Assembly: GCA_026770705.1 (NCBI GenBank)
Contig: JANJGN010000052.1
Coordinates: 3,844,001 to 3,908,000, forward strand
Direction of reading: 5' to 3'
DNA: 64,000 nt
DNA from: Isurus oxyrinchus
Taxonomy: Eukaryota
Below the pieces are notes generated by a model, which was not told the origin of the DNA, made no database searches, and worked only from the letters and a program-made list of their open reading frames with translations. Position numbers and translations under genes: made by a program. Below are positions 40-64,000 of this stretch, piece by piece. How positions within the stretch are numbered: the stretch's first letter is position 1; every line of letters starts with the position of its first letter.

Positions 40-321
40 ATGCACCACAGGATCTCTCAATTACTTCTCTTGATATGATTAACGCTTCATCGATCAATAT
101 AATTGAGGGGAATTCTGCAGTGATAATCTGCTCTGTCGAGAGCTTCCCAGCTTCTAACCTGACGTGGCGACATCTTAATGTCCCAATGAACAGAACAAGT
201 TCCAACAATGAGCTGTGGTTGGTGATTCCTCACGTTACATCCAGGGACACTGGAGACTATCAGTGTGTGGCAGAGAATGAACATGGAGCAGTGGAGGGAT
301 TCATAACCATCACTGTGGAAT
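40..321 (+). CDS. Gene A C2-set Ig exon (282 nt, phase 1-1)
   Basis: tttttag|ATGCACCA...GTGGAAT|gtgagt; encodes APQDLSITSL...CSVESFPASNLTW...DTGDYQCVAENEHG. Confidence 0.92.
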
Positions 322-358
322 GTGAGTTAACACAAACTTCAACATTACTCTCACATAT

Positions 359-389
<31 letters not shown>

Positions 390-3300
390 GACACGTGCAC
401 ACAAACAAGCATTCATGTGCAATCCCACATGTGCACAGGTGTGCACGCCTGCATGCTCACACACAGAAGCATACATACAGAATCACACGTGTGCTTGCTC
501 ACACACACACAGACATGAGTGAGTTGTCTGTTCTCCCTGTGCTGCACTGGAGTGTTGCTCCAGATTCTGCTCTGAAACACTGACGACATCAGCTGAACAA
601 GACCCTGTATTGGACGAGCAGCCCCCTGCACAGAGAATTGTAGGTTTATCACTCAATACCCCATTATTCTAAAGCAATTCCTCCACTGTCAAATCCCTGT
701 GAACCTCCTGATGATGTGAAAGACACTTTCTTTTCTTCTAGCCCGACAGTGTCTCCTCTGGTGGAAGGCTGTAATTACAGCGTGACAGTTTACATATCCA
801 CATGCAGCAAGAGCTGAACAACACTCAGCTTGGGCTGAGACAATTAATGCATCACAAGCACCAGGCAGTGATCATGTCCAACAAGAGAGAATCTAACCAT
901 CTCCCCTTGATGTTCAGTGAGTTTACTATCACTGAATCCCCCACAATCAACATCCTGGGGGATGTTAACCAAACTACTAACTGGACCGGCCAATAAAACT
1001 GTGGCTATAGGAGCCGGTCAGAGGCTGGGAATTCTGTGGGGGTGAAAAACTCACCACCACCTCCTCAAAGGCAATTAGGGATGGGTAATAAATGCTGGTC
1101 TAGATAGATACATCCACTTCCCATGAATGTACAAAAAGAAAAACACCGGCAGTGACCATTATAAAAGTTGACATAGGAACTTAAAACAGGAAAGAAACCT
1201 TGAAATGCACATAGACACCAAATAGAGAGAGATGTATCATGGAGTCTTGCTGTGCACTGTGTTTGCTCACAATGAAACCTTTATTTGTATTTAGATGCAC
1301 CACGGAACCTATCAATTACTTCTCTTGATATGATTAACGCTTCATCGATCAATATAATTGAGGGGAATTCTGCAGTGATAATCTGCTCTGTCGAGAGCTT
1401 CCCAGCTTCTAACCTGACGTGGCGACATCTTAATGTCCCAATGAACAGAACAAGTTCCAACAATGAGCTGTGGTTGGTGATTCCTCACGTTACATCCAGG
1501 GACACTGGAGACTATCAGTGTGTGGCAGAGAATGAACATGGAGCAGTGGAGGGGTTCATAACCATCACTGTGGAACGTGAGTTANNNNNNNNNNNNNNNN
1601 NNNNNNNNNNNNNNNNNNNNNNNNNNNNNNNNNNNNNNNNNNNNNNNNNNNNNNNNNNNNNNNNNNNNNNNNNNNNNNNNNNNNNNNNNNNNNNNNNNNN
1701 NNNNNNNNNNNNNNNNNNNNNNNNNNNNNNNNNNNNNNNNNNNNNNNNNNNNNNNNNNNNNNNNNNNNNNNNNNNNNNNNNNNNNNCATACACATGCACA
1801 CACTCACTCATGCACAGATGTATACAAACAGGCACACGCACACATGCGCATACACACACACACGCACACATAAACATACTCACTAGAGCAAAAACACAAA
1901 CACACAAAAACACACAAACACAAACACATGTGTGAGTTCCCTGTCCTCTCTCAGTGCTGCACTGGAGTCTCGGTATCAGCTCCGATTCTGTGTTGAAGGA
2001 AGGTAAACTCCAGATCAACAAGACCCTGAATTGGATGAGCAACCTCCTGAACAGAGAATTGTAGATTTACCCCTCAGTGCTCCATCAATCAAATACAATC
2101 ATTGCCTGTCAAGCCCTTGGGTATATCCTGAGGATGTGAAAGTTTCTTTCATTCTAGGTGGACAGCACCTCTACTGCAGTTTGACTGTTTACATAGGCAG
2201 TGCCCATTATAAATTTGACAGTGGAAGTTATATGGAGGGAAGGTATCTGGAAATGCATACAGACATCAGATACAGAGAGATGATGCATGGAGTCTAGCTG
2301 TAAACTGTGCTTGCTCACATTAAACACTTGATTTGTTCTTAGATGCTCCACAGAATCTCTCATTTACTTCTCTTGATATGATTAACGCTTCATCGATCAA
2401 TATAATTGAGGGGAATTCTACAATGATAATCTGCTCTGTCGAGAGCTTCCCAGCTTCTAACCTGACGTGGCGACATCTTAATGTCCCAATGAACAGAACA
2501 AGTTCCAACAATGAGCTGTGGTTGGTGATTCCTCACGTTACATCCAGGGACACTGGAGACTATCAGTGTGTGGCAGAGAATGAACATGGAGCAGTGGAGG
2601 GGTTCATAACCATCACTGTGGAATGTGAGTGTGGAGATACATTTGTTTGTTTGTTGTCTCCGTGGTCTCCGTGGAGCCATTGGGATCGTGTTGTTTTTAA
2701 TCCAGTTTTCTTCAATCCTCGCTCAGTCCACGTTATCCACACACCCAATTTTTCCTCTCCCTTTCTGTTTTTGCTCTCAGTTTCTCCTTCAATGGTTGTG
2801 AGGACAAGGCTGTCAGGTCTTCGTTTCCAATCTCCGTACTTGACGACCTTTCTCTCTCTAACTGTCCTGAACAACCCTTTTAATTGCTGAACTTCTCATT
2901 CTTTAATTGATAAATATTATATATTAATGTTACATGGATTACTTTGAAATGCAATACCTGTATTCATAAATTGCTTAGAAATTACTAAACATTCAACAGC
3001 CAGTGAAGCATTATCGAAGTGAGCTCACTGTTCTAATGTAGGAAACACAGGTACTGATTTGTGCACAGCAAGATCCCGCAAACCACCATGTGATAATGAG
3101 CTGATAGTCGATTATTTCAGTGAGGTTGGTTGTTACATGTGTAGAGACTACATACCCTTTAGGGAGGGAAGCATGTCTCGATGTGGATGTGACTCCAGTC
3201 TCAAACACCAACATGGTTAACTCTTACCTGCCCTCTGAACTGGTCTCCCAGTTTGGGACAAACCAGTGGTTCAGGAGGAATACCCCCCACCACCTTCTCA

Positions 3301-5794
3301 AGGGAAACTAGGGATGGACAATAAATGTCAGCATTGCCCGAGAATGAGTATTTAAACACTGAGTGAGTGTATCGCTTCTCGAGATACATCGGAGCATCAT
3401 TGTAAACCTGTAGTGCAGTAATTAATGGCTGTTTTTACAGGTAGAGACTCCAGTAAATGGACAGTAGGATTGTTCACGGCTGGGATCATGTTGAGTGTTT
3501 TCCTGGCTGGAATCTTCATCTTCATCTGTGTGAGAAAGTAAGTCTGAAGATTTAACTTGATTTTAATATAAACATTTGCTTCAATGTTCTATCCTTAAGT
3601 CGGTGATTGTTTCCCTTGGGAGCAGCACCAGGTCCCTCTCTGTAAGTGGTCCCTGTGTCCACTCTGATCCGGAGAGAACCTTTCATTGTCCTGTATCCAG
3701 GTAAACAATCACGAGACCCAGAGATTCCTCACTCTGCACGATTACTCCTGGATAAATATTTGCTTCAATGTTCTTTCCTGAAGTCGGTGATTGTTTCCCT
3801 TGTGTTAAGCGCTAGATGCCTCTCCGTAACTGGTCTCTTTTGTCCCTTACGATCCAGACAGTGTTTTTCATTGCCCGTTATCCAGATGAATAATAATCAG
3901 TTGCTGTGATCTGGAAGGTGCTGCCTGAAAGGGCGCTGGAAGCAGATTTAATAGGATCTTTCAAAAGGGGAATTGGATAAATACTTGAAGGGGGAACATT
4001 TGAAGGGCTATGGGGGGAAGAGCAGGGGTGGAGGGGGGGTCAAAGATATGGCGTGTCATTATAATGATATTATACCTTAGGCTTATTTATTGTACAAGAA
4101 ACAAAGCACCAATCGCTCACAGGGATTGGGTGAGAATGTTAATGATTTGTTTATCAAGACTCGGCACGAGAACAGTTATACATATGGAGAAAGATTGAAG
4201 GCATCAGAGCCATGAGTGTGTGTTCTGCTCAAAGCAAAAGTCAAACTAAGATTGGATCACATGACACACTTCCATTATAGTGATGTCACGCTGATACCCC
4301 TTATTGGAACTAGAGACAGTCCATTCGTTGGTGTAAGGTTACACTGGGCTCTGTGTCTGTGCTGCACTGACTCTCTGCTATATGATAACCACAGTGTGAT
4401 ATTGTGTTATTGCAGGAGAAAGACAGCGATGGAGGAGAGAGTTTCAGGGACCAGTGACATTGTATTGACCCCCAGTCCACTCTCTGTGAAGCACCAGGTA
4501 CAGGAGCTGTTTACACTCACTCCAAAGCTTCTATCTCAGTGTGTAGACAACACATGTCCCAGATTCCCAGCCAGGTTACCCACAGATATCTAACTGTGTA
4601 GTCAGATATGGCTCAGTATGTAGCATTGTCTCTCGCTCCCTCCCCCTCTTCCCTCCATCACTCGCTCTTTGACCAGAAACCTGAACGCAATAATGACAAG
4701 GCACCTGATGTCAGTAGTGAGGGAGTGCTGCACTGTCCTAGGGTCTGTGCTGAGGGAGTGCTGGAGTGTCAGAAGGTCAGTACTGAGGGAGTGTTGCACT
4801 GTCAGAGGGTCTGTACTGAGGGAGAGCTAGACTGTCAGAGGGTCAGTACTGAGGGAGTGCTGCGCTGTCATAGGGTCAGTACTGAGGGAGTGCTGGACTG
4901 TCGGACGGTCAGTACCGAGGGAGTGCTGCACTGTCGGAGGGTCAGTACTGAGGGAGTGCTGCACTGTCGGATGGTCAGTACTGAGGACAGTACTGAGTGA
5001 GTGCTGCACTGTCAAAGAGTCCATTTGCAAGGGGTGCTGCCCTCTTGAAGGGGCAGTTCCGAGGGAGTGCTGCACTGTCAGCAGAGAGCACTGAGAGAAC
5101 ATTGCAGTGTTCGAGGTGCCTCTTTCAGAATAGTTGTATAATGCTGACCATGTTTACCATCTTATCTGGTCCCATGGCCACATTTCCAACACTGTAGCAG
5201 TGTCTCCCTTCAATAAAATTCCTTCATTGGCGTGAGGTTCTTTGTGTGTCTGTGTTTGTGAATAATGGGGCACAAATCTCATGATTGGGATGGTAACATA
5301 GGACTTCAAGACTCAGGTCTGCGATAGCGAGAGAGATTACATGATAAATAGAGAGAGAAAGCAAGAGAGAGAGAGAGAAAGAGAGACAGAGAAAGAGATT
5401 GAAAAAAAGGAGACAGAGAAAGAGAGTGAAAAAGAGGGTTAAACCCATTGAGACATGACTGACAGTAACGAGGCTGCAGAATAACTTAACCCTATCAGTG
5501 CCAGTAAATGATGTGAGGATGTCTTCTGTTTCTATTTCTCTGTAGGGTAAACAGAACGTGCTGATTACTGAGCCCCGGAACACAACCAGAGACACAACTA
5601 GTGAGGGGGAGACCCCAGCTCCCCGGGGTCTCTCTGAAGGTCCAGTGGGAGGCGATGTTGGACATGGGAACCCCGACAAACCCGACGAGCTTTTCTACGC
5701 CAACATCAACTTTTCAAAGCTGCCCAGCGGTGACAGGACTGTGCACAGGAGCGAGGACACGGAATACGCACAGATCAGGTTCCAGAAAAACTGA
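40..5794 (+). CDS. Siglec-like inhibitory receptor, gene A, 3' part (5' end upstream of window). Exons 40-321, 1295-1576, 2343-2624 (C2-Ig), 3441-3537 (TM), 4416-4497 (cyto1), 5546-5794 (cyto2, ITIM+ITSM)
   Basis: All exons have AG/GT boundaries and compatible phases (1-1, 1-1, 1-1, 1-2, 2-0, 0-stop). The spliced frame is open. C2 exons have C...W...DTGDYQC and join as VE(Y/H)AP, as in CD22/MAG/Siglecs. Confidence 0.9.
790..1145 (+). mobile_element. Non-LTR retrotransposon (shark HER1-like, CR1/L2 group) 3' fragment
   Basis: Degenerate RT-end ORF (ESPTINILG...NWT) and a 3' tail 'ggcaattagggatgggtaataaatgctgg' shared with many copies in the window; mirrored at 55615-55980. Confidence 0.65.
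1295..1576 (+). CDS. Gene A C2-set Ig exon (282 nt, phase 1-1)
   Basis: Near-identical copy of 40-321 with canonical splice sites. Confidence 0.92.
2343..2624 (+). CDS. Gene A membrane-proximal C2-set Ig exon (282 nt)
   Basis: Near-identical copy with canonical splice sites; carries the NSTM variant. Confidence 0.92.
3441..3537 (+). CDS. Gene A transmembrane exon
   Basis: tttacag|GTAGAGAC...AGAAA|gtaagt; RDSSKWTVGLFTAGIMLSVFLAGIFIFICVRK is an uncharged hydrophobic helix followed by basic residues. Confidence 0.9.
4416..4497 (+). CDS. Gene A cytoplasmic exon 1
   Basis: ttgcag|G AGA AAG...CAC CAG|gtacag; phase 2-0 bridges the TM and last exon exactly (RKTAMEERVSGTSDIVLTPSPLSVKHQ). Confidence 0.8.
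4705..5090 (-). repeat. 33-bp minisatellite (ctccctcagtactgaccctccgacagtgcagca)n
   Basis: Tandem units visible in reverse orientation. Confidence 0.85.
5546..5794 (+). CDS. Gene A terminal exon with ITIM (LFYANI) and ITSM/ITIM-like (TEYAQI) motifs
   Basis: tgtag|GGTAAA, phase 0; ends ELFYANINFSKLPSGDRTVHRSEDTEYAQIRFQKN*, the same layout as CD33-related Siglec tails (LHYASL/TEYSEI). Confidence 0.9.
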   Translation, partial: GKQNVLITEPRNTTRDTTSEGETPAPRGLSEGPVGGDVGHGNPDKPDELFYANINFSKLPSGDRTVHRSEDTEYAQIRFQKN

Positions 5795-20740: not shown

Positions 20741-20974
20741 GGCTTTAAACTAAATAGAGTGTGGGGCGAATGTTTCTGGAGAGGGTATATGTACAGTTAC
20801 AAACCAAAAGGATTTATTAGCATTGCAGGATAGCTGTTTTGGCAATGATACCCAGTGTGTGACAGGAAGGGACACAGTGTCCAAACATAAAAATACATCA
20901 GCAAATAGTGTCAGAGGGGGGGAAATGATAAAAAGACAAAATTAATGGCTCTTTACTTAAATGCACATAGTATT

Positions 20975-21626: not shown

Positions 21627-21629
21627 CAC

Positions 21630-22095: not shown

Positions 22096-22212
22096 AGTCT
22101 GCCTGAATTATGTGCTTTGTGGTGAAGGATTGATATTACACCTGTAACATTGTCAGGGTCTCTGAAAGTGCTTCACAGTCAATGTAAGTAACTGATCTTT
22201 ATTCGTTTTTAG

Positions 22213-22485
22213 ATGCACCACAGAATCTCTCAATTACTTTTCATGATATGATTAATGCTTCATGGATCAATATAATTGAGGGGAATTCTGCAGTGATAAT
22301 CTGCTCTGTCGAGAGCTTCCCAGCTTCTAACCTGATGTGGTGACATCTTAATGTCCCAATGAACAGAACAAGTTCCAACAATGAGCTGTGGTTGGTGATT
22401 CCTCACGTTATATCCAGGGACACTGGAGATTATCAGTGTGTGGCAGAGAATGAACATGGAGCAGTGGACGGGTTCATAAACATTC
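22213..22485 (+). pseudogene. Gene B disrupted C2 exon (D3)
   Basis: Copy of the 282-nt exon with CGA>TGA stop at 22341-22343; 3' end and donor lost at the LINE junction. Confidence 0.9.
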
Positions 22486-22487
22486 TG

Positions 22488-23535: not shown

Positions 23536-23727
23536 TGTTATATGTGAATCCTCCTTATAGAAACCTGCATGTACATGGATATTATCAATAAATATTACAT
23601 AGATATATGTTATTTGTATAGACCTTTCATGCATAGACAATATCACTTCACAAGTTCAGAATTACTACATGTACATAGGGAACCATTCTCAAACTGTACC
23701 GGAGTCATTCATTGGCTGATTTTACAG

Positions 23728-23824
23728 GGCGAGATTCCAATGAATGGAAAGCAGGATTGCTTGGAGCTGGAATCTGTTTGAGTGTTGGACTGAGTGGATT
23801 CTTCATTTTCAAGTCTGTGAGAAA
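23728..23824 (+). CDS. Gene B transmembrane exon (intact, 97 nt, phase 1-2)
   Basis: tttacag|GG CGA GAT...AGA AA|gtaagt; RDSNEWKAGLLGAGICLSVGLSGFFIFKSVRK; same length and phase as, and homologous to, the gene A TM exon. Confidence 0.85.
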
Positions 23825-23887
23825 GTAAGTGCGAAGGTTTAATTGGTTGATTTCAAACATTTTTTCTTCAACCTTCTCTCCTTATAG

Positions 23888-23944
23888 CAGGAATCAAATC
23901 GAACCATCGTGTTGATGAATATCGAGGTCCTGTTTATGAAAACT
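23888..23944 (+). CDS. Putative gene B cytoplasmic exon (GIKSNHRVDEYRGPVYEN)
   Basis: Polypyrimidine tract plus AG, donor gtgagt and a YxN motif; phase does not match the TM exon 63 nt upstream. Confidence 0.4.
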
Positions 23945-24104
23945 GTGAGTGTGGTTGGGCTTTGAGGAATCAGGTGAGTCACACACCACAGGATCCCCAG
24001 CCTCTCAGCTGCTCCAGTAGCCTGGTTATTGATATGGCTGCTCCACTCCTGTATCTGCAATGTTTTATACAGTCACTCCCAAACCCAACCAAACTCACAC
24101 CCAA

Positions 24105-26190: not shown

Positions 26191-26286
26191 ATGTCTCTAC
26201 TGTGGATGGAATTTTTGATTTGGATCAATAATACTAAACACTGATCACTCTGATTGTCACTCTGATCATTTCTGTTTCTATTACAG

Positions 26287-26403
26287 AAGAAAGATGAAAA
26301 GGTTCTGGAAATGAAATCTAACCGCGGAGTCAATCCTGATACAGATGATGATCTTTACGCAAACTGTGATTTTGCCAAGGATTCTGTTTATGGGAATTTA
26401 TAA
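26287..26403 (+). CDS. Putative gene B terminal cytoplasmic exon with two tyrosine motifs
   Basis: ctattacag|AAG...; KKDEKVLEMKSNRGVNPDTDDDLYANCDFAKDSVYGNL*. Confidence 0.65.
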   Translation, partial: KKDEKVLEMKSNRGVNPDTDDDLYANCDFAKDSVYGNL

Positions 26404-29865: not shown

Positions 29866-31626
29866 CTTAATACTGACCCTTCAACAGTGCGGCACTCCCT
29901 CAGTACTGATCCTCCAACATTGCAGCACTCCCTGATTAATGTCCCTCTGACAGTGCAGCACTCCCTCAGTACTGACCCTCAAACAGTGGAGATCTCCCTC
30001 AGTGCTGATCTTACAATAGTGCAGTAATGACCATCCGACAGTGCAGCACTCCCTCAGGACTGACACTGGGCAGTTTCAGTCTACTCTGTGGGGCAGACGT
30101 CCCCTGAATGGGGTCTTGAATCCCACAACATTCTGACCCCCTGAATTTGGCTGTGAAACCCACTGACCCACAGGAGAAACTCCTGGTCAATGACTGTCCA
30201 CCTGTCAGCAGAAATATCAACACAGGGTCAGGACACAAAGGGTTAACAGTTCACCAACATCTCAAAACATGAGCTGCTCTGTCACTTTGATCCAACTTCC
30301 TCATTTTGACTCACAGAGACACATCAACCCTTTCTCATTAAATACACAGAGGGAGCAGCACAGGAAGAGGTCATTCAGCCCAAGCAGAGCGTGTGGGCAG
30401 TTCCTCCCCAGGCGAGCAGTCGGACAGGTCCTGGGTAAGTAACGGAACGATTGGAATTCACTTCCACCACCAACACCGTCCTTTGTTGATGTTGTGACTT
30501 TATAAAGAGAGATTCCAATGAATGATGTCTTTGAAAGATTTCTACTGGTTATTGAGATCTGGGTGTGAGGCTCAAGTCTGTTGTACAGAACATCTTTCTA
30601 GCTCAGGGGATGAGGGAAGTGCAGAGACATGAGCTTTGGGATGTCCTGAGGTGGTGAAAGGTGCTATAGAAATGCAAATCCTTCATTGTTTGTCTTTCTT
30701 AAAGCCTTGTAACTCTCTGCAGAGCACCTATCATCCCACAGAGAATCAAATTAGTCTGTGAAGACATTGTCTAAAAGCAGTTCTGATCTCTCGAGAGGTG
30801 CTGGACAAGAGGTGAGGTCTCATTAACTCCTTTCTCTTTCACAGCTTGAGAGTGAGAAGTGGATGGAATATCTGGGAGTGGACAATGATCGGGAAGTCTA
30901 CTTCCTCTTGTCACTTCTCCAAGGTAATATCATCGTCAGCTTGGACAGATTTATGTTTAACAGTCTTTGTAAAAGATCATTCTTATCTCTTTATCTCTGT
31001 AACCTCCTGCAACTCACCCAAACAACTTCCCAGATCTCTGTGTTACTCCAATTCCGGCCTCTTGACCATCCCCCAATTCCCATCACTCCAGTACTGGTGG
31101 CCGTGCCTTCAGCTGCCTGGGGCCTGAGCTCTGGAATTCACTCCCTAAACCTCGGGGATTGAGGAGATCAGAGGGTTTCATTTTACTGAGAATCACCACG
31201 ACCACATCACAGCTGCAGTGAGAATAGACAGAGAGTCCAGCCCTCACACTTCCTGCACAGTTTCACCATAGCAACCACAATAAGGAAATTTAACAATACT
31301 GAAAGTTAAACTGAAGCTCAGCCCATTCAGTGTTGAGAGATGAGATATTTACACAGTTTCCCTGTGTATCTTGTGGACACTGTGTTGGGTGGAAGACTGG
31401 CTTCACTAAACAGGGTCCTGAGGACCATGAGCCAATGTAGAATGAAATTGTCCACTCCTGTGTCCAGGATTCTGTTCCATCCGTTGTGAAACCTTGGGGA
31501 GTTCCTTGTGTGTCCTGTAGATGGTCCACACTGCAGCCACTGTGCCCCAGTGATGGAGGGGGTGGATATCGAGTCTAGTGGATCTACAAACTATCCAGAG
31601 TCAAATGTTGATATTTCTCTCCCCAG

Positions 31627-32000
31627 TTGGACTGTCACAAGAGTGGAAAGGTGACACTCCACGAGAGGTGACAGCACAGGAAGGTTCATGTGTACCGATT
31701 CCATGTCATTCCAGTTACTTATCAAATTTCGTAGGGAGATCACGTGCGGAATCTGGTTGAAAGGAATAGATGGGAACCCACAGCCTAAATGGTCTATAGC
31801 CTTTCACTCCGAGGGTCACAGTCACAGGGATCAAAGATTCCGCCATCGGACCCGGCTGTCTGGAGACCTGAAAGATGGCGACTGTTCCCTGATTATAAAC
31901 AACATCAGACGGGAAGATGCAGGACCTTATTTTTTCAGAATAGAGTTTGACAGCAGGAATAGTTACAGCTAGTATCCTGTAACCCAGCTTGACGTTTCTG
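31627..32000 (+). pseudogene. Gene C V-set exon, frameshifted
   Basis: Homologous to 18501-18869 and retains YFFRIE, but has a frameshift and a stop. Confidence 0.9.
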
Positions 32001-34339
32001 GTAAGTGCTGTGTTATAATTACTCAACAATTCACATCCAACACTCAATGGGAAATAACACAAACTGTGACGTTTACATAATAACACAAAACACAGCTTAT
32101 TATAACACACTGTCTGATTCTCAATAACCTGGTGATAGCTTCCAGTTCAGTCCTAAAGCAACCTCTAAAAATCACTTTAATATCAATGATGAAAAGCATT
32201 AACTGTACCGACATCTTTCATTCTACATCAGCACTCCCTCAGCGCTGACCCTCTGACAGTGCAGCCCATTCTCAGTGTCCACATTCTCAGACCTCTCAAA
32301 ATGCTTCACAGTCGATAGAAGTTAATTGATCTTTATTTGATTATTGCTGAATGAAGAGACAAGCTGTCTAAACTTTACATCTCGCACACACCATTCTCCA
32401 CGGCAACACCTCCACCTATCAGAGACCACTTGCCAACCAATCAGCACTGTCTTCCCATTAAGTATAAATTGTTGTTCACTTTCTGTTGGTAATTGTGCAT
32501 ACGGGGTTCTTGATTCCCTCCCTGACATCTTAATGTCCCAATGAACAGAAGAAGTTCCAACAATGAGCTGTGGTTGGTGATTCCTCACGTTACATCCAGG
32601 GACACTGGCGACTATCAGTGTGTGGCAGAGAATGAACATGGAGCAGTGGAGGGGTTCATAACCATTACTGTGGAATGTGAGTGTACACAGACTTCAACAT
32701 CTCTCTCAGATTCGAATACTACACAAACACCCTCAAACGTACAGACCTAAATAGACACGTGCAGACACACATATATGACCACACACAAAGACACACTCAC
32801 AAACAAACACACTAGCACAAGACTCCCTCATGGGTTACCTGACCTCCCTCAGTACTGCACTGGAGCGTGGGCTGAATTCTGGGATCTGTGTTCCCATTCA
32901 TATTTATGGAAGAATATGGAAATTACTCGTACAAACACTCAGATGCATAGAGGCACTCATAGATACTCTCTGCATCTCCAACTCTCTCTCTCCCTTTAAG
33001 GAGCTACCTGAAACCTAACCCTTTGACGAATAACTAGTCCCAACTCCTCTTTATCTGATTATGTGATTTTTTTGTGAATCTGAGAGTAAGAGAGAGGTGG
33101 AGAGGTTTAGTAAGAGAATTCCTGCTGATGAAAAGCTTACATCCTGTTCTCACTATTTCCGTGCCCATTATGTCCAAAGCCCCTGTTTATAGTGATGACT
33201 CCCTATGTAAACGTCACACTGTAGTTACAGCCTCCCACCAGTGGTGGCATTGTAGCACTTAATCCTTGTGTTTCCCAGCTTTTCAAGCAAATCTACTTCC
33301 CAGTTTGCTACACAAGCTGGGAGTTCATCGGAATTCAATTATTTCTCAAACGGTAGATTTGATAATTCATTTTATTGAGAACTTCCTCAGCACCTCCCTG
33401 AAGTGTTTACACTCTCCGGGAAGCAGGAATAGGCTGGATGTTGGGGAGTTCATCTTTTCCCAGAGAGTAGGGATCCTCGGGAATGTGCTGTCAGTGGGTG
33501 TGGTGGTTGCTGTCTCTCTGTCACCTTCAAGAGGGATCTGGAGTGGTTACTGACTGGGGGAGAGATCATGGAAGCGGAGAATGATACAGCACAGGAGGAG
33601 GCCATTCAGTCCATGGTGCCTGTGCCAGGTCTTTCAATGTTCTATCCCATCAGATCCACTAACCACCACTCCACTTTGCCCCCATCTTCCTCCTTCAAGT
33701 GTTTATCCAATTTCCCTTTTGAAAGTTCCTATTGAATCTGCTTCCACCGCCCTTTCAGGCAGCACCTTCCAGATGACAACAACTCGCTCTGTCAAAACAA
33801 ATTCTCCTCATCTCCCCCTCCGGTTTGTCAATCTGTGTCCCTCTGGTTACCGACCCTCCTGCCCCTTAAATACATCGATACTGTTCACCTCAACCACTCC
33901 CTGTGGGATCGAGTTCCACATTCTCCCCTCTCTCTGGGTAAAGATTGGAACTGTTTATTAAGCGGGGGTTGTAAGTCCGTGGGGGAGTCCATCTCGATCC
34001 TCCCTGATTCGCACACACGTCCGAGATGGATTTCAACCCTGCACTAAACGTTTCCAGAATTTTCTACAGCACAATCCTGTACACAGTGATGGAGAGAAAC
34101 ATTGGACAGGGAGTCCAACAACACAATGATCCATTCTCACCAATGTTCCACGCTAAGGGGAAAGTTCCGATTGTCCACTCTTAGAGTGTTTACAATGAAA
34201 ACATTCATTCCACATTGAATCCCAGTGGATGGGTCAATAATACAGCAAATGTTGCAGTGATATGAAGCTTGATTGTTCAGCCAGAGTGAGAGATTGAAAG
34301 AGGAGAGTCAGTGATGATTTCTTTCTGTGTGTTCTCTAG

Positions 34340-34479
34340 ACAGTGGAGGAGAGATTCTGCACGTGATCCTGATCCTGGGAATACGAGCTGTGATATTCCT
34401 TGTGGCTGTGGTTATCACTATCGCTGGAGTCTGTGTCTGGGAGAGACAAACAGTGAAAGGAAGTCGACAGACTGTTTGA
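34340..34479 (+). CDS. Activating-type TM + short tail exon (Arg inside the TM helix)
   Basis: ctctag|AC AGT..., phase 1; (Y)SGGEILHVILILGIRAVIFLVAVVITIAGVCVWERQTVKGSRQTV*; Arg codon at 34384-34386. Confidence 0.8.
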
Positions 34480-52145: not shown

Positions 52146-52428
52146 GTTTGAGCCTCACGCCTGGTGGTTGGTTCCTGTCCCAGCTGAGGACTGGCGCCAT
52201 GTTGTACATCCTGTAAATCCCGCCAGTCTCTCCCAGCACTTTCCATGCCTGGCGCTATTTCCATGGTGCGCTTCAAATCGATGTCGGCTTCTGCGAGTAA
52301 ACGGCTCTGAATGGCGTTGGGGTGAACGACACAAACCAATCGGCCCCGCAACATGTCATTGAGTGTGTCTCCGAGGTCCCAGTGCTCAGTCACCTGCTTC
52401 CACTTCACTGTATAGGTTGCGATGGACA
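51240..52428 (-). mobile_element. Degenerate Ty3/Gypsy LTR retrotransposon gag-protease remnant
   Basis: LNDMLRGRLVC...IQSRLLAE (gag), CRFKGAECHHCHKKG (Zn knuckle), VNGQPLVM / LKTHTGE / GEGPSLLGRDW (protease region); frameshifted. Confidence 0.8.
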
Positions 52429-53222: not shown

Positions 53223-53319
53223 TTTCTCACACAGATGAAGATGAAGATTCCAGCCAGGAAAACACTCAACATGATCCCAGCCGTGAACAATCCTACTGTC
53301 CATTTACTGGAGTCTCTAC
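53223..53319 (-). CDS. Gene D transmembrane exon
   Basis: Reverse complement of 3441-3537. Confidence 0.9.
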
Positions 53320-55108
53320 CTGTAAAAACAGCCATTAATTACTGCACTACAGGTTTACAATGATGCTCCGATGTATCTCGAGAAGCGATACACTCACTCA
53401 GTGTTTAAATACTCATTCTCGGGCAATGCTGACATTTATTGTCCATCCCTAGTTTCCCCTTGAGAAGGTGGTGGGGAGTCTTCCTCCTGAACCACTGGTT
53501 TGTCCCAAACTGGGAGACCAGTTCAGAGGGCAGGTAAGAGTTAACCATGCTGGTGTCTGAGACTGGAGTCACATCCACATCGAGACATGCTTCCCTCCCT
53601 AAAGGGTATGTAGTCTCTACACATGTAACAACCAACCTCACTGAAATAATCAACTATCAGGTCATTATCACACGGTAGTTTGCGGGATCTTGCTGTGCAC
53701 AAATCAGTACCTGTGTTTCCTACATTACAAAAGTGTGCTCACTTCGATAATGCTTCACTGGCTGTTGAATGTTTAGTAATTTCTAAGCAATTTATGAATA
53801 CAAGTGTTGCATTTCAAAGTAATCCATGTTACATTTATATATAATATTTATCAATTAAAGAATGAGAAGTTCAGCAATTAAAAGGGTTGTTCAGGACAGT
53901 TAGAGAGAGAAAGGTCTTCAAGCACGGAGATTGGAAACGAAGACCTGACAGCCTTGTCCTGACAACCATTGAAGGAGAAACTGAGAGCAAAAACAGAAAG
54001 GGAGAGGAAAAATTGGGTGTGTGGATAACGTGGACTGAGCGAGGATTGAAGAAAACTGGATTAAAAACAACACGATCCCAATGGTTCCACGGAGACCACG
54101 GAGACAACAAACAAACAAATGTATCTCCACACTCACGTTCCACAGTGATGGTTATGAACCCCTCCACTGCTCCATGTTCATTCTCTGCCACACACTGATA
54201 GTCTCCAGTGTCCCTGGATGTAACGTGAGGAATCACCAACCACACCTCATTGTTGGAACTTGTTCTGTTCATTGGGACATTAAGATGTCGCCACGTCAGG
54301 TTAGAAGCTGGGAAGCTCTCGACAGAGCAGATTATCATTGTAGAATTCCCCTCAATTATATTGATCGATGAAGCGTTAATCATATCAAGAGAAGTAAATG
54401 AGAGATTCTGTGGAGCATCTAAGAACAAATCAAGTGTTTAAAAGTGAGCAAGCACAGTTTACAGCAAGACTCCATGCATCATCTCTCTGTATCTGATGTC
54501 TGTATGCATAGCCAGGTCCCTCCACTCCATATAACTTCCATTGACAAATTTATAGTGGGCACTGCCTATGTAAACAGTCAAACTGCAGTTACATTCTCCC
54601 AACAGTAGAGGTGCTGTCCACCTAGAATGGAAGAAACTTTCACATCCTCAGGATATACACAAGGGCTTGACAGGCAATGATTGTATTTGATTGATGGAGC
54701 ACTGAGGGGTAAATCTACAATTCTCTGTTCAGGAGGTTGCTCATCCAATTCAGGGTCTTGTTGATCTGGAGTTTACCTTCCTTCAACACAGAATCAGAGC
54801 TGATACCGAGACTCCAGTGCAGCACTGAGAGAGGACAGGGAACTCACACATGTGTTTGTGTTTGTGTGTTTTAGTGTGTTTGTGTTTCTGCACAAGAGAG
54901 TATGTTTATGTGTGCGTGTGTGTATGTGTTTGTGCATGTGTGCATGTGCCTGTTTGTATACATCTGTGCATGAGTGAGTGTGTGCATGTGTATGTCTATG
55001 TGTGTGCACATGTGACTGTGTGTGTGAGTTGAGTGTGTGTGTGTTTCTGTGTATGTGTTTCAACATGCATCACTGTGTGTGTAAGTGTGCGTGTATGTGT
55101 CTACACAT

Positions 55109-55159
<51 letters not shown>

Positions 55160-57433
55160 TGATGTTGAAGTTTGCAGTAACTCACGTTCCACAGTGATGG
55201 TTATGAACCCCTCCACTGCTCCATGTTCATTCTCTGCCACACACTGATAGTCTCCAGTGTCCCTGGATGTAACGTGAGGAATCACCAACCACAGCTCATT
55301 GTTGGAACTTGTTCTGTTCATTGGGACATTAAGATGTCGCCACGTCAGGTTAGAAGCTGGGAAGCTCTCGACAGAGCAGATTATCACTGCAGAATTCCCC
55401 TCAATTATCTTGATCGATGAAGCGTTAATCATATCAAGAGAAGTAATTGATGGGTTCCGTGGTGCATCTAAATACAAATAAAGGTTTCATTGTGAGCAAA
55501 CACAGTGCACAGCAAGACTCCATGATACATCTCTCTCTATTTGGTGTCTATGTGCATTTCAAGGTTTCTGTCCTGTTTTAAGTTTCTATGTCAACTTTTA
55601 TAATGGTCACTGCCGGCGTTTTTCTTTTTGTACATTCATGGGAAGTGGCTGTATCTATCTAGAGCAGCATTTATTACCCATCCCTAATTGCCCTTGAGGA
55701 GGTGGTGGTGAGTTTTTCACCCCCACAGGATTCCCAGCCTCTGACCGGCTCCTGTAGCCACAGTATTTATGGCCGGTCCAGTTAGTTGTTTGGTTAACAC
55801 CCCCCAGGATGTTGATTGTGGGGGATTCAGTGACCGTAAACTCACTGAACATCAAGGGGAGATGGTTAGATTCTCTCTTGTTGGACATGATCACTGCCTG
55901 GTGCTTGTGTGGTGTGAACATTACTTGTCATTTCTCAGCCCAAGCTGAGTGTTGCTCAGTTCTTGCTGCGTGTGGATATGTAAACTGTCACGCTGTAATT
56001 ACAGCCTTCCACCAGAGGAGACACTGTCGGGCTAGGAGAAAAGAAAATGTCTTTCACATCATCAGGATGTTCACAGGGATTTGACAGTGGAGGAATTGCT
56101 TTAGAATAATGCGGTATTGAGTGATAAACCTACAATTCTCTGTGCAGGGGGCTGCTCGTCCAATACAGGGTCTTGTTCAGCTGATGTCGTCAGTGTTTCA
56201 GAGCAGAATCTGGAGCAACACTCCAGTGCAGCACAGGGAGAACAGACAACTCACACATGTCTGTGTGTGTGTGTGAGCAAGCACACGTGTGATTCTGTAT
56301 GTATGCTTCTGTGTGTGAGCATGCAGGCGTGCACACCTGTGCACATGTGGGATTCCACATGAATGCTTGTTTGTGTGCACGTGTCTGTGTGTGTGTGTTT
56401 GTGTGAGTGTGTGTGTATATATGAGAGTAATGTTGAAGTTTGTGTTAACTCACATTCCACAGTGATGGTTATGAACCCCTCCACTGCTCCATGTTCATTC
56501 TCTGCCACACACTGATAGTCTCCAGTGTCCCTGGATGTAACGTGAGGAATCACCAACCACAGCTCATTGTTGGAACTTGTTCTGTTCATTGGGACATTAA
56601 GATGTTGCCACGTCAGGTTAGAAGCTGGGAAGCTCTTGACAGAGCAGATTATCACTGCAGAATTCCCCTCAATTATATTGATCGATGAAGCATTAATCAT
56701 TTCAAGAGAAGTAAATGAGAGATCCTGTGGTGAATCTAAGAACAAATCAAGTGTTTAATGTGAGCAAGCAAAGTGCACAGCAAGACTCCACGCATCATCT
56801 CTCTGTATCTGATGTCTGTATGCATTGGCAGGTACCGTCCCTCCATATAACTTCCACTGTCAAATTTATAATGGGCACTGCCTATGTAAACAGTCAAACT
56901 GCAGTTACATTCTCCCACCAGTAGAGGTGCTGTCTACCTAGAATGAAAGAAACTTTCACATCCTCAGGATTTTGCCAAGGGATTTACGGGAATGAATTGT
57001 ATTTGATTGATGGAGCACTGAGGGGTAAATCTACAATTCTCTGTTCAGGAGGTTGCTCATCCAATTCAGGGTCTTGATCTGGAGTTTACCTTCCTACAAC
57101 ACAGAATCGGAGCTGATATCGAGACTCCAGTGCGGCACTGAGAGAGTAGCGGGACCTCACGTGTCTGTATGTTTGTGTTTGTGTTTCTGCAGATGTGAGT
57201 GTGTTTGTGTGGGTATGCACACATGTGTCTGTGTGTGCATGTGTGTATGTGTTTGCGCAAATGTGCGTGTGTCTTTGTGTATATTTCTGTGCATAAGTGA
57301 ATGTGTGTACATGTGTATGTGTATGTGTGTGCACGTGTGAGTGTGTGTGTGTGAGTTGAGTGTGTGTATGTTTCTGTGTAGGTTTTTGCACATGTATGAC
57401 TGTGTGTAAATGTGCATGTATGTGCCCCCACAT

Positions 57434-57493
<60 letters not shown>

Positions 57494-59384
57494 AAGATGT
57501 TGAGGTCTGTGTAACTCACGTTCCACAGTGATGGTTATGAACCCATCCACTGCTCCATGTTCATTCTCTGCCACACACTGATAGTCTCCAGTGTCCCTGG
57601 ATGTAACGTGAGGAATCACCAACCACAGCTCATTGTTGGAACTTGTTCTGTTCACTGGGACATTAAGATGTCGCCACATTAGGTTAGAAGCTGGGAAGCT
57701 CTTAACAGAGCAGATTATCACTGCAGGATTCCCCTCAATTATATTGATCGATGAAGCGTTAATCATACCAAGTGATGTAATTGAGACATCCTGTGGTGCA
57801 TCTAAAAACATAGAAAAATTTTAATGTGAGCAAATATAGTGCACAGCAAGACTCCATGCATCATGTCTCTGTATCTGATGTCTGAATGCATTTCCAGGTA
57901 ACTTCCCTCAGGATAAGGTCTTATGGCACATTTATAATTGACACTGCCTATGTAAACTGTCACACTGCAGTTGCATTCTCCCACCAGTAGAGGTGTTGTC
58001 CATTTAGAATGAAAGAAGCTTGCTTTCACATCCTCAGGATTTCGCAAAGGGCTGGACAGGCAATGAATTTTATTTGATCGAGGGAGCATTTAGGGGTAAA
58101 TCTACATTTCTCTGTTCAGGAGGTTGCTCCATCCAATTCAGGGTCTTGTTGATCTGGAGTTTACCTTCCTTCAACACAGAATTGGAGCTGACACCGAGAC
58201 TCCAGTGCAGCACTGAGAGAGGACAGGGAACTCACGCGTGTGTATGTGTGTGTTTGTGTTTCTGCACAAGTGAGCGTGTTTGTGTGTGTATGCACACATG
58301 TGTCTGTGTTTGCACTTGCGCATGTGTCTGTGTGTCTACGTCTGTCCATGAGTGAGAGTATGTGCATGTGTGTGTCTATGTGTGGGCATGAATATGTGTG
58401 TGTTTGAGATGGGTGTGTATTTTCCTGTGTATGTGTTTGTGTGTGTATGACTGTGTGTGTATAATTATGCATGTGTGTGCCTACAGGTGTCTGTCTGGGT
58501 GTGTGTGTGTGTCTGTGTGCGTGTGCGTGTGCGTGTGTGTGTGTGTGTCTGTAGGTGATGTTGAAGTTTGCAGTAACTCACGTTCCACAGTGATGGTTAT
58601 GAATCCCTCCACTGCTCCATGTTCATTCTCTGCCACACACTGATAGTCTCCAGTGTCCCTGGATGTAACGTGAGGGATCACCAACCACAGCTCATTGTTG
58701 GAACTTGTTCTGTTCATTGGGACATTAAGATGTCGCCACGTCAGGTTAGAAGCTGGGAAGCTCTCGACAGAGCAGATTATCACTGCAGAATTCCCCTCAA
58801 TTATATTGATCGATGAAGCATTAATCATTTCAAGAGAAGTAAATGTGAGATTCTGTGGAGCATCTAAGAACAAATCAAGTGTTTAATGTGAGCAAGCAGC
58901 GTGCACAGCAAGAATCCATGCATCATGTCTCTGTATCTGATGTTGGAATGCATTTCCAGGTACCTTCCCTCATGAAAAAATACTGTCACATTTATAATGG
59001 GCACTTCCTCTGTAAACTGTCACACGGCAGTTGCTTTTTCCCACCAGTAGAGTTGCTAACCCTCTAGAATGAAAGAAACATCCTTTAACACTCTCAAGAT
59101 GTCCCCAAAGGCTTGACAGGCAATGAATTGTATTTGATCGATGGAGCACTGAGGGCTAAATCTACATTTCTCTGTTCAGGAGGTTGCTCATCCAATTCAG
59201 GGTCTTGCTGATCTGGAGTTTACCTTCCTTCAGCACAGAATCAGAGCTGATACCAAGACTCCAGTGCAGCACTGAGAGAGGAGAGGCCGCTCATACTTGT
59301 GTGTGTTTGTGTGTGTGTGTGTGTGTACTTCTGCGCAAGTGAGTTTGTATTTGTGTGTATGCGCGTGTCTGTCAGCGCATATGT

Positions 59385-59417
<33 letters not shown>

Positions 59418-60609
59418 TGTGTGTGTATGTCTGTGCTTGAGGGAGTGTGTGTGCATATGTGTCTCTATGTGTGCGCATGAATGATTGTATGTGTGAGTTG
59501 AGTTTGTGTGTGTTTCTGTGTATGTGTTTGAACGTATGTTTGTGTGTAAGCGTGCATGTTTGTGTCTACACATGAGTGTTTTTGCATGTGTGAGTGTGTG
59601 TGTGTGTGAGTGATGTTGAAGTCTGTGTACACTCACATTCCACAGTGATGGTTATGAATCCCTCCACTGCTCCATGTTCATTCTCTGCCACACACTGATA
59701 GTCTCCAGTGTCCCTGGATGTAACGTGAGGAATCACCAACCACAGCTCATTGTTGGAACTTGTTCTGTTCATTGGGACATTAAGATGTCGCCACGTCAGG
59801 TTAGAAGCTGGGAAGCTCTTAACAGAGCAGATTATCACTGCAGGATTCCCCTCAATTATATTGATCGATGAAGCGTTAATCATATCAAGAGAATTAATTG
59901 AGAGATTCAATGGTGCATCTAAATATATGGAAAGATTTTAATGTGAGCAAATATAGTGCACAGCAAGACTCCATGCATCATGTCTCTGTATCTGATGTCT
60001 GAATGCATTTCCAGGTAACTTCCCTCAGGATAAGGTCTTATGGCACATTTATAATTGACACTGCCTATGTAAACTGTCACACTGCAGTTGCATTCTCCCA
60101 CCAGTAGAGGTGTTGTCCATTTAGAATGAAAGAAGCTTGCTTTCACATCCTCAGGATTTCGCAAAGGGCTGGACAGGCAATGAATTGTATTTGATTGATG
60201 GAGCACTTAGGGGTAAATCTACAATTCGCTGTTCAGGAGGTTGCTCATCCAATTCAGGGTATTGTTGATCTGGCGTTTACCTTCCTTCAACACAGAATTG
60301 GAGCTGACACCGAGACTCCAGTGCAGCCCTGAGAGAGGAGAGGGAGCTCACGCGTGTGTATGTGTGTGTCTGTGTTTGCTTTTCTGCACAGGTGAGTGTG
60401 CTTGTGTGTGTATGCACACCTGTATCTGTGTGTGCGCATGCACGCGTTTCTGTGTGTCTACGTCTGTCCATGAGTGAGTGAATGTGCATGTGTGTGTCTA
60501 TGTTTGGGCATGAATATGTGTGTGTGATTGAGATGGGTGTGTATTTTCCTGTGTATGTGTTTGTACGTGTATGAATGTGTGTATATAATTATGCATGTGT
60601 ATGCTTACA

Positions 60610-60654
<45 letters not shown>

Positions 60655-63600
60655 GCGTGTCTGTATGTGTGTGTGTGTGTGTGTGTGAGAGATGTTGAAG
60701 TTTGCAGTAACTCACGTTCCACAGTGATGGTTATGAATCCCTCCACTGCTCCATGTTCATTCTCTGCCACACACTGATAGTCTCCAGTGTCCCTGGATGT
60801 AACGTGAGGAATCACCAACCACAGCTCATTGTTGGAACTTGTTCTGTTCATTGGGACATTAAGATGTCGCCACGTCAGGTTAGAAGCTGGGAAGCTCTCG
60901 ACAGAGCAGATTATCACTGCAGAATTCCCCTCAATTATATTGATCGTTGAAGCGTTAATCATATCAAGAGAAGTAAATGAGAGATTCTGTGGTGCATCTA
61001 AAAACATATAAAGATTTTAATGTGAGCAAGCACAGTGCACAGCAAGACTCCATGCATCATCTCTCTGTATCTGATGTCTGAATGCATTTCCAGGTTCCTT
61101 CCCTCAGGATAAGAACTTATTTCACATTTACAATGGGCACTGCCTATGTAAACTGTCACACTGCAGTTACATTCTCCCACCAGTGGAGGTGTCCATCTAG
61201 AATGCAGGAAACTCCCTTTCAGATCCTCAGGATGTCCCCAAGGGCTTCAAAGGCAATGAATTGTGTTTGATCGATGGAGCACTGAGGGGTAAATATACAT
61301 TTCTCTGTTCAGGAGGTTGCTCCATCCAGTTCAGGGTCTTGTTGATCTGGAGTTCACCTTCCTTCAACACAGAATCAGAGCTGATACCGAGACTCCAGTG
61401 CAGCACTGAGAGAGGAGAGGGTACCCACACGTTTTTGTCTGTGTATGTGTGTGTTGGCTTGTGTGTGTGTATGTTTNNNNNNNNNNNNNNNNNNNNNNNN
61501 NNNNNNNNNNNNNNNNNNNNNNNNNNNNNNNNNNNNNNNNNNNNNNNNNNNNNNNNNNNNNNNNNNNNNNNNNNNNNNNNNNNNNNNNNNNNNNNNNNNN
61601 NNNNNNNNNNNNNNNNNNNNNNNNNCACTCACATTCCACAGTGATGGTTATGAACCCCTCCACTGCTCCATGTTCATTCTCTGCCACACACTGATAGTCT
61701 CCAGTGTCCCTGGATGTAACGTGAGGAATCACCAACCACAGCTCATTGTTGGAACTTGTTCTGTTCATTGGGACATTAAGATGTCGCCACATCAGGTTAG
61801 AAGCTGGGAAGCTCTCGACAGAGCAGATTATCACTGCAGAATTCCCCTCAATTATATTGATCGATGAAGCGTTAATCATATCAAGATAAGTAATTGAGAG
61901 ATTCTGTGGTGCATCTAAAAACATATAAAGATTTTAATATGAGCAAATATAGTGCACAGCAAGACTCCATGCATCATGTCTCTGTATCTGATGTCTGAAT
62001 GCATTTCCAGGTACCTTCCCTCAGGATAAGAACTTATTTCACATTTACAACGGGCACTGCCTATGTAAACTGTCACACTGCAGTTACATTCTCCCACCAG
62101 TGGAGGGGTCTATCTAGAATGCAGGAAACTCCCTTTCAGATCCTCAGGATGTCCCCAAGGGCTTCAAAGGCAATGAATTGTATTTGATCGATGGAGAACT
62201 GAGGGGTAAATCTACAATTCACTGTTCAGGAGGTTGCTCATCCAGTTCAGGGTCTTGTTGATCTGGAGTTTACCTTCCATCAACAAAGAATCGGAGCTGA
62301 TACCGAGACTCCAGTGCAGCACTGAGAGAGGAGAGGGTACCCACACGTTTTTGTGTGTGAATGTGTGTGTTGGCTTGTGTGTGTGTATGTTTCTGCACAA
62401 CAAGGATCTGTGTGTGCACGCACGCATGTGTGTTTGTGTGTGTGCGCACGTGTGTCTGTCTGTGCGTGTGTGTGTGTGTGAGTTAAGGTTGTGTGTCCTT
62501 CTGCATGTGTGTCTGTTTGTGTGTGTGTGTGTGTGTGAGTGTGTGTGTGTATGTGTGTGTGTGTGTGTGAGTGATGTTGAAGTTTGCAGTAACTCACGTT
62601 CCACAGTGATGGTTATGAACCCCTCCACTGCTCCATGTTCATTCTCTGCCACACACTGATAGTCTCCAGTGTCCCTGGATGTAACGTGAGGAATCACCAA
62701 CCACAGCTCATTGTTGGAACTTGTTCTGTTCATTTGGACATTAAGATGTCGCCACGTCAGGTTAGAAGCTGGGAAGCTCTCGACAGAGCAGATTATCACT
62801 GCAGAATTCCCCTCAATTATGTTGATCGATGAAGCGTTAATCATATCAAGAGAATTAATTGAGAGATTCTGTGGTGCATCTAAAAACAAATAAACATCAA
62901 TTAACTTAAACTGACTGTGAAGCACTTTGAAATACACTGAGAATGTGAAAGGTTTGATATCAATGCAGGTTCTTTCACCACAAAGCCCGTAATCCAGGCA
63001 GACAAATCAGTTCAGTATTGAGGGAGTGCTGCAATGACAGAGGGTCAGTACTGAGGGAGTGCTGCACTGTCAGTGTGTCAGTACTGAGGGAGTGCTGTAG
63101 TGTCAGACGGTCAGTACTGAGGGAGTGCTGCATTGTCAGTGTGTCAGTACTGAGGGAATGCTGCACTGTCAGAGGGTCAGTACTGAGGGAGTGCTGCACT
63201 GTCAGTGGGTCAGTACTGAGGGAGTGCTGCACTGTCAGATGGTCAGTAAAGAGGGGGTGCTGCACTGTTTGACGGTCAGAACTGAGGGGGTGCTGCACTC
63301 TCAGAGGGTCAGTACTGAGGGAGTGCTGCACTGCGAAGATTCAGTACTGAGGGGGTGCTGCACTGTCGAAGGGTCAGTAGTGAGGGAATGCTGCAGTGTT
63401 GGAGAGTCAGTATTCAGGGACTGCTGCAGTGTCAGAGGTGAATTTGTATCAATTAAAGACTATTGATTTGTTGCTAAACACAATGCAGTTGTGGGATCTT
63501 GCAGTGTACTATGTGGAGCTTTCTAGCTAATGTAGATGGAAGGGAGTCGGTACTTACCTTGCACAGTTAGTACGAGGGTCCGCTCCGATGAAACAGATGG

Positions 63601-63854
63601 ATATCTCACTCTGCAGCTGAGAGTGTGTCCGTGGTGTTTGAGTGATGGGATCAGGGTCAGAACAGAAGTATAGGTCAGAGTGACACCATGCTGAGTTACA
63701 GTGTTTGAGACTGATCCAGGTACGTCAGTGGGAGTGTCCCTGGTTAAGACAGGTGCTGCTGTTCCATTGCACGTTGTGTTGAAGGTGCAGCTTACATCCA
63801 CACGCTTTCCTGCAATAATTTCAGCAGGGAATATCGTGGGTTTATCTGTGAAAT
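53223..63854 (-). CDS. Siglec-like gene D (5' end beyond window): D2 63854-63558; nine C2 exons 62879-62598, 61914-61633, 60997-60716, 59918-59637, 58863-58582, 57801-57520, 56735-56454, 55467-55186, 54418-54137; TM 53319-53223; no cytoplasmic exons found
   Basis: All exons are open with AG/GT boundaries. D2 is near-identical to gene B D2. The last three C2 exons, TM and introns are an inverted near-copy of gene A. Confidence 0.88.
63015..63435 (-). repeat. 33-bp minisatellite
   Basis: Tandem units; same intron position as the arrays in gene B. Confidence 0.85.
63558..63854 (-). CDS. Gene D Siglec domain-2 exon
   Basis: Reverse-complement homolog of 19270-19566; conserved Trp replaced by Arg. 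Confidence 0.9.
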
Positions 63855-64000
63855 CTAACAGACAGAGAATGGATCCTTTTAGAGAAATATAACGTGAAGC
63901 ATCAGTTCAAATAGAAATCACAGTCCCACAAGAGAAAGCACTTTTACAAGGATGATATCAGAACTGAGTTGTTTTAACTATCCTGATAGACTGTTAGACA

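Follow-up and report, generated by a model that had tools for sequence, protein, structure and literature searches.

The nine-C2 gene and its stalk exons

The 64,000-nucleotide (nt) stretch analysed here (the window) was part of contig JANJGN010000052.1 (C52) of the Isurus oxyrinchus assembly, a shark genome; coordinates are positions in the window unless marked C52. On its minus strand we found a gene with nine C2 exons (the nine-C2 gene), in which exons for a signal peptide, a V domain and a D2 domain were followed by the nine C2 exons and a transmembrane (TM) exon. The reading that we consider the likely one is that these exons encode, in a Siglec-type gene, a repeated immunoglobulin (Ig) stalk with predicted N-glycosylation, that stalk length varies among near-identical sister genes, likely through unequal crossing-over together with gene conversion, and that the nine-C2 copy, which was tail-less in the assembly, is probably a decaying duplicate. 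The features were the following.

C52:3911723-3911762, minus strand, past the window end: signal-peptide exon, 40 nt
C52:3908226-3908591 (= 64226-64591), minus strand, past the window end: V-set exon, 121 amino acids (aa), with F-strand Arg and Cys 21, 26 and 83
63855..64000, minus strand: end of the V-D2 intron
63558..63854, minus strand: D2 exon, Pfam C2-set_2, Cys 22/28/80, Arg in place of Trp
62598..62879, minus strand: C2/I-set stalk exon 1
61633..61914, minus strand: C2/I-set stalk exon 2
60716..60997, minus strand: C2/I-set stalk exon 3
59637..59918, minus strand: C2/I-set stalk exon 4
58582..58863, minus strand: C2/I-set stalk exon 5
57520..57801, minus strand: C2/I-set stalk exon 6, the most diverged, 13-19 nt from the other eight
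56454..56735, minus strand: C2/I-set stalk exon 7
55186..55467, minus strand: C2/I-set stalk exon 8
54137..54418, minus strand: C2/I-set stalk exon 9
53223..53319, minus strand: TM exon, uncharged, phase-2 donor
52426..52427, minus strand: deletion junction in the intron after the TM exon
40..5791, plus strand: 3' end of an inverted sister gene, with the last 3 of its 11 C2 exons, the TM exon (3441-3537), the first tail exon (4414-4497) and an exon (5546-5791) with an immunoreceptor tyrosine-based inhibitory motif (ITIM)-like motif and an immunoreceptor tyrosine-based switch motif (ITSM)

All nine stalk exons were 282 nt long, had AG...GTGAGT ends, were in phase 1-1 and contained no stop. The splice ends, the open frames and the nine distinct sequences bore out the original prediction of nine tandem 282-nt phase 1-1 exons. 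Each exon encoded an Ig domain of 93-94 residues, and the two domains that were scanned matched Pfam Ig_3/I-set. Together with D2 and the V exon, which was found just past the window end, the gene had the 11 Ig domains that had been proposed. The expected 2-5 N-glycan sequons per domain were also present (4, 3, 4, 4, 4, 2, 3, 3 and 5 in gene order, 32 in all, of the types NLS, NAS, NLT, NRT and NST); glycosylation itself is predicted. The spacing of the stalk exons was 917-1268 nt. Thus, the suggested period of about 1.0-1.3 kb was roughly right, two periods being slightly shorter than 1.0 kb.

The nine exons were 96.2% alike, the neighbouring 150 nt of intron were 82.0% alike, and in a protein comparison the C2 units of the gene were 93% identical. 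A collapsed or invented repeat was ruled out, since no two of the nine exons were identical (pairwise differences of 6-19 nt) and most units had their closest counterpart in other genes. Every stalk intron contained a TG-rich tract, and the 149 N at 61477-61625 occupied the site of this tract in sister introns; accordingly, positions 60710-61476 aligned to 61627-62392 at 96.5%, with the TG-rich tract coming next. Outside the window, no N runs were present in the 1.12 Mb of C52 fetched around it. Since the N fell on the intron tract and no other N runs were found, it is unlikely that they hide a further 282-nt exon, as had been suggested; the window sequence cannot separate a mask from a gap.

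Siglec identity and the gene cluster

The V domain matched Pfam V-set and Ig_CD22, and its top 13 PDB matches were all Siglecs (sialoadhesin, MAG, Siglec-5, -8, CD33 and -10), with sialoadhesin as the best one (E 7e-16). Its Arg, in the motif YFRIE, aligned with the Arg of sialoadhesin (FRFE) and MAG (YFRG). It has been reported that a conserved F-strand Arg is a feature of Siglecs (PMC13358205). D2 matched MAG and CD33 weakly, with a nectin ahead of both, and V, D2 and C2 each matched MAG. When a homolog from white shark with 88-94% identity per domain was modelled (mean predicted local distance difference test score, pLDDT, 76.6), its best fold match was MAG (E 4.5e-32, 28% identity). The Siglec cysteine pattern comprises B-E intradomain and V-D2 interdomain disulfides, and the three Cys of V and the three of D2 stood at the expected places in the sequence. 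Identity as a CEACAM, nectin or hemicentin was ruled out by the V matches and the fold. The layout of V, C2-set domains, TM and cytoplasmic tail was found in the family and the sisters, the nine-C2 copy being without tail exons. By these sequence features, the nine-C2 gene is a shark Siglec-type gene, and its V domain is probably sialic-acid-binding.

The V search returned 107 relatives; all but one, which was unnamed, were named shark or ray proteins, and the closest were lamniform. The predicted elasmobranch RefSeq proteins automatically named 'Siglec-10/12/13-like', 'sialoadhesin-like' and 'hemicentin-like' belonged to the same family (52-91% V identity among the 107 matches). They shared D2, C2, TM and tails with the family of the nine-C2 gene and had 0-10 C2. 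Among the 20 of 150 matches that were looked up, the non-elasmobranch relatives were amphibian, turtle, mammalian and fish Siglec-like proteins at about 32-39%. In a 22-row unrooted V-D2 tree, which contained no true MAG or Siglec-1 row, the shark family fell outside a branch with 98/97 support that comprised mammalian CD33-like, amphibian, one turtle and charr proteins, and shark 'MAG-like' proteins formed a separate branch (81/80). Three MAG-like proteins (P0171, P0174 and P0262) were on contigs that matched in size the family-bearing contigs of Heptranchias and Scyliorhinus torazame, which hints at one linked Siglec region.

The nine-C2 gene is part of a cluster that spans several megabases and has several hundred Siglec-like copies. 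In the 4.98-Gb assembly, to which all genome-wide counts refer, an exact 27-mer of D2 occurred 355 times and its reversed control 0 times. Of 41 tiled D2 exons, 31 contained this 27-mer; scaled accordingly, the count would be about 470 units. Matches were located on contigs C52, C71, C121, C150, C189, C323, C385, C546, C557, C646, C1184 and C1343. In a tile of 1,182,079 contiguous bases (28% of C52) we identified 46 TM-anchored units, which were divided into three classes. Class A (20 units) had the TM of the nine-C2 gene, and 19 of its members carried a tail with LxYANx and TEYAQI-like motifs. Class B (10 units) had a different TM and a tail with a Tyr motif, and class C (16 units) had a short-tailed TM with an Arg in 15 of the 16 TM exons. 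An ITIM tail set against a short tail with a charged TM has been described as the paired-receptor pattern (PMC13358205), and by analogy we infer that class A is inhibitory-type and class C activating-type. The ectodomains of the classes were alike, as in paired receptors: D2 was 96.6-100% identical across the 41 tiled copies of all classes.

D2 and TM were nearly uniform across the cluster, unlike V. The 68 open V exons encoded 58 proteins, and the Arg was present in 51 of 60 distinct V. The mean pairwise ratio of nonsynonymous to synonymous differences (pN/pS) of V, 0.61, gave no indication of positive selection, and the variation was clustered in a few stretches. Among full-length C2 exons, 97 of 99 were open. 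Broken or truncated units were common in the cluster, where 17 of 46 failed the completeness filter.

The window also held two other units on the plus strand. In a class-B unit (15862-26400) the single C2 exon (22213-22494) had a stop and lacked a donor, the signal exon lacked one base, no first tail exon was found at the expected site, and a 24-bp minisatellite of 87 copies (24103-26188) lay between two tail exons. In a class-C unit (31600-34476) V was broken, D2 was absent and only half a C2 remnant was left, next to an intact TM-Arg exon (34339-34476). Elsewhere on the contig, a class-C gene (C52:3539149-3557558) contained a tandem row of seven V exons, of which four were almost the same; the number of V was 0-7 in this class. 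A truncated V pseudo-exon of a second Siglec-like family was located at C52:3812904-3813176, with nine more in the tile. It was 71% identical to the N-terminal V of Heptranchias protein P0032, was followed by the same retroelement-like remnant as that at the junction of the nine-C2 copy, and travelled with the segmental duplicates. Orphan tail exons (ITIM, tail exon 1, ITIM) with a class-B tail exon were found at C52:3822515-3825696, C52:3916486-3919682 and other places, directly 5' of the signal exons of genes with long stalks, which suggests duplication breakpoints inside neighbouring genes.

Transcripts of the family are spliced. In run X5 (same organism, different sample, guessed to be RNA), bins over exons had a much greater depth than the adjacent bins over introns, and loose ends corresponded to C2-C2, C2-TM and TM-to-first-tail-exon joints; both fit RNA. 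Run X17 (another organism, also guessed to be RNA) contained one C2-C2 joint.

Variation of the stalk and apparent loss of the tail

The inverted neighbour at the start of the window was a duplicate of about 24 kb, 96-97.6% identical to the nine-C2 copy outside the array. Its V differed by one residue, and it had 11 intact C2, the Trp in D2 and an intact ITIM-like/ITSM tail; this makes it a better test subject than the nine-C2 copy. Six more loci were chosen as the top matches to the last stalk exon. In five of them V was at least 99% identical and the C2 numbers were 11, 11, 11, 12 and 13 (V was broken at the 13-C2 locus); the sixth had a broken V at 93% and 7 full C2. All six kept the tail and the D2 Trp. 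Thus, the claim that length varies by copy number agreed with six sisters that had at least 99% identical V and 11, 11, 11, 11, 12 and 13 C2 against nine. Across the 46-unit tile, the number of full C2 exons per unit was 0-11 in class A, 0-3 in class B and 0-1 in class C, which had up to 7 V instead of a stalk. Four seven-C2 genes (C52:3027145, 3161216, 3626397 and 4069269) had an internally deleted first C2 exon, of which about 90 nt were left with splice sites apparently kept, and a 5'-truncated last C2. Since they shared both defects, these four genes are copies of one ancestor.

It had also been proposed that the array arose by recent exon amplification, and this was not supported as stated for the nine-C2 gene. 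In nine arrays, exons of one gene differed from each other by 10.0 nt and exons of different genes by 10.2 nt, and only 7 of 69 units had their best match in their own gene. The units of the nine-C2 gene mapped onto those of its neighbour in shuffled order. Moreover, five further genera of elasmobranchs, comprising a sevengill, a bamboo, a zebra and a cat shark as well as a stingray, had predicted proteins with stalks of 8-10 copies. The C2 identity within a protein was 96% in Heptranchias, 95% in Hypanus, 84% in Chiloscyllium and Scyliorhinus canicula and 82% in Stegostoma, and it was only 56-68% between Heptranchias, Hypanus and the nine-C2 gene. Since units are shared between genes and arrays occur in other sharks and rays, the stalk layout is old and reshuffled rather than the product of a one-off recent amplification. 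The sequences compared thus show the pattern of concerted evolution, or else that of an old layout which was amplified again several times.

Unequal exchange and gene conversion would change the number of stalk units and homogenise them. Because the exons are symmetric (phase 1-1), gain or loss of a unit is frame-neutral and length can drift. It has been described that sialoadhesin with 17 Ig domains reaches about 33 nm and with six about 14 nm, that forms with four or fewer failed to bind red cells, and that its length helps it to escape cis masking (PMC10027830). Interpolated from these values, the 11-13 Ig domains of the intact sisters would lift the Arg-bearing V about 22-26 nm above the membrane. 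A V raised in this way may be less masked by the glycans of its own cell, which would allow the ITIM/ITSM receptor to engage ligands on other cells. By analogy with sialoadhesin, the stalk of the intact sisters is therefore most likely a spacer that raises V over cis glycans.

The same symmetric exons, lying beside microsatellites, could expand and contract without any selection on reach. We regard this neutral account of stalk length as rather unlikely, though drift of length can be compatible in part with a spacer stalk. It would agree with C2 numbers of 0-13 within one class, with the TG-rich tract of each intron and with a mean pN/pS of 0.58 for C2. It fits less well with the finding that only the ITIM class had long arrays: of the units that passed the completeness filter, 8 of 16 in class A had 7-11 intact C2 and 9 of 9 in class C had 0-1 (the units are related and not independent, and the counts are descriptive only), and most class-C units held only a broken C2 remnant. 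The 8-10-copy arrays of five other genera also speak against it.

The nine-C2 copy differed from its class at the 3' end. It was the only one of the 20 class-A units in which tail exons were absent, and the roughly 94 kb that separate its TM exon from the next gene on the minus strand contained no tail exons on that strand. At 52427/52426 the TM intron was joined to a retroelement-like remnant, 81 nt before the expected start of the first tail exon. In comparison to a sister unit, about 15.5 kb with both tail exons was missing, a deletion seen in the assembly only. The remnant followed a different pseudo-exon elsewhere, and the sequence past the junction matched, in one of three frames, a gag aspartyl-protease profile, although this match did not reach the cut-off of the profile (E 0.0066). 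In addition, D2 had an Arg at a position that was occupied by Trp in 38 of 41 tiled copies and in 103 of 103 homologs; we take this Trp to be an Ig core residue. The TM donor was intact and identical to that of spliced sisters, and reading through it led to an immediate stop, giving a 1113-aa product that ended in VRK, a three-residue tail. The copy looks tail-less only through the 15.5-kb deletion. Since its tail exons are missing and the core Trp of D2 is replaced by Arg, this sequence probably belongs to a decaying duplicate. If expressed, it would yield the 1113-aa tail-less protein with a likely destabilised D2.

A number of points weighed against the interpretation given at the outset. 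A long stalk is not required, since 12 of 20 class-A units had 0-4 C2, and the C2 pN/pS indicated modest constraint only. The RNA joints were at family level and cannot be assigned to the nine-C2 copy, and sisters on other contigs may be uncollapsed alleles that inflate the counts. Ligand binding, glycosylation and physical length are predictions from sequence and analogy, and the D2 Arg was read from the assembly sequence alone. With 40 of 1610 candidates scored, the junction occurred a single time in the assembly, and no public contig listed for runs X1, X4, X5 and X7 bridged it; a misjoin at this place is thus possible.

There are two other explanations of the tail-less form of this copy. 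The first is that the nine-C2 copy is a functional tail-less receptor or decoy, in which the intron after TM is retained and which acts as a sialoadhesin-like adhesion molecule or as a competitor of its ITIM-bearing sisters. All 13 exons were in frame with canonical sites, the read-through stopped cleanly after VRK, a polyadenylation-like hexamer was present at 51938, about 1.3 kb past the stop, and V retained its Arg. Nevertheless, we consider this improbable: the junction was single-copy, D2 lacked the Trp of all the homologs, the TM donor was that of the spliced sisters, and broken units were common around it.

The second, to which we give equally little credence, is that the tail loss, and perhaps the D2 change too, is an assembly misjoin between segmental duplicates of 96-99% identity and that the real gene is an intact inhibitory member. 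The lack of a bridging contig would agree with it, as would the contigs of X4, X5 and X7 that ended at the junction (that of X5 continued into the intact form) and the presence of both junction sides in many copies. However, the joined sides shared only a few bases, unlike a misjoin through long homology, and other truncated units filled the cluster. Furthermore, X1 and X4 were covered only at 50-65% and contigs drop rare variants, so that a missing bridge proves nothing.

Receptor height and known Siglec systems

As a tentative proposal, which we hold to be possible rather than probable, sharks may possess several hundred germline-encoded, paired Siglec-like receptors, a repertoire with two separate dials. 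Inhibitory members would vary their reach through an interchangeable pool of C2 units (0-13, homogenised per lineage since the shark-ray split), and activating-type members, which are stalkless, would vary their V heads (up to 7). If true, it would depend on receptor height which of them recognise self sialic acid in cis or in trans. We found no description of such height tuning for Siglecs in the open-access literature. A paper on bony fish stated that fish genomes lack inhibitory CD33-related Siglecs; the word 'shark' was absent from it (PMC7226832). This shark had at least 355 D2 copies with inhibitory-type and activating-type ends, far more than mammalian Siglec clusters. The same V with 9-13 stalk domains, in a family that spans 0-13, is a natural length series. 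With it one could test, for an inhibitory receptor, the idea derived from sialoadhesin that a lectin escapes its cis ligands through the length of its ectodomain. The interest therefore lies in the cluster and the length series, of which the nine-C2 copy is a poor representative since it is apparently damaged. Searches of the open-access literature on Siglecs in sharks and cartilaginous fish turned up no paper that described this family; supplements (such as the tandem-cluster tables of 10.1101/2025.06.08.657570 and PMC8455134) and subscription reviews of Siglec evolution were outside this scope.

Among known receptors, MAG (Siglec-4) was the best fold match of the close homolog. MAG is a conserved single-copy gene with 5 Ig domains. 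Sialoadhesin (Siglec-1/CD169) resembles the nine-C2 gene in having one Arg-bearing V followed by a long run of C2. Sialoadhesin is a single gene with diverged C2 domains, whereas the shark C2 were 93% identical and their number varied among paralogs. It has been reported to have 17 Ig domains and to lack a signalling motif (PMC10027830; PMC13358205), in comparison to 11-15 Ig domains in the nine-C2 gene and its close sisters. Neither the nine-C2 gene nor its class showed the 17 Ig domains and motif-free tail expected of a sialoadhesin ortholog. Thus, the label 'sialoadhesin-like' suits the length of the stalk but not the tail, since 19 of 20 genes of the class carry an ITIM-like/ITSM tail.

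The CD33-related Siglec cluster, with the pairs Siglec-5/14 and -11/16, is likewise a fast-evolving tandem cluster with inverted duplicates and pseudogenes (PMC13358205). As in its pairs, V-D2 heads in the shark were common to inhibitory ends (ITIM-like plus ITSM) and short-tailed ends with a TM Arg, and as in CD33-related Siglecs the Arg was lost in some V (9 of 60 in the shark cluster). The tails of the sisters carried motifs of the CD33-related type, in which an ITIM near the membrane is joined by a distal ITIM-like/ITSM motif; they read LxYANI and TEYAQI, the first ending in Ile where the strict form has Leu or Val. The shark cluster differed in its size, with hundreds of units rather than about ten, and in its gene layout, since single genes had as many as 7 V or 13 C2. 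Judged by these sequence features, the system would work much as a cluster of paired, CD33-related Siglecs does, with the addition of a stalk like that of sialoadhesin.

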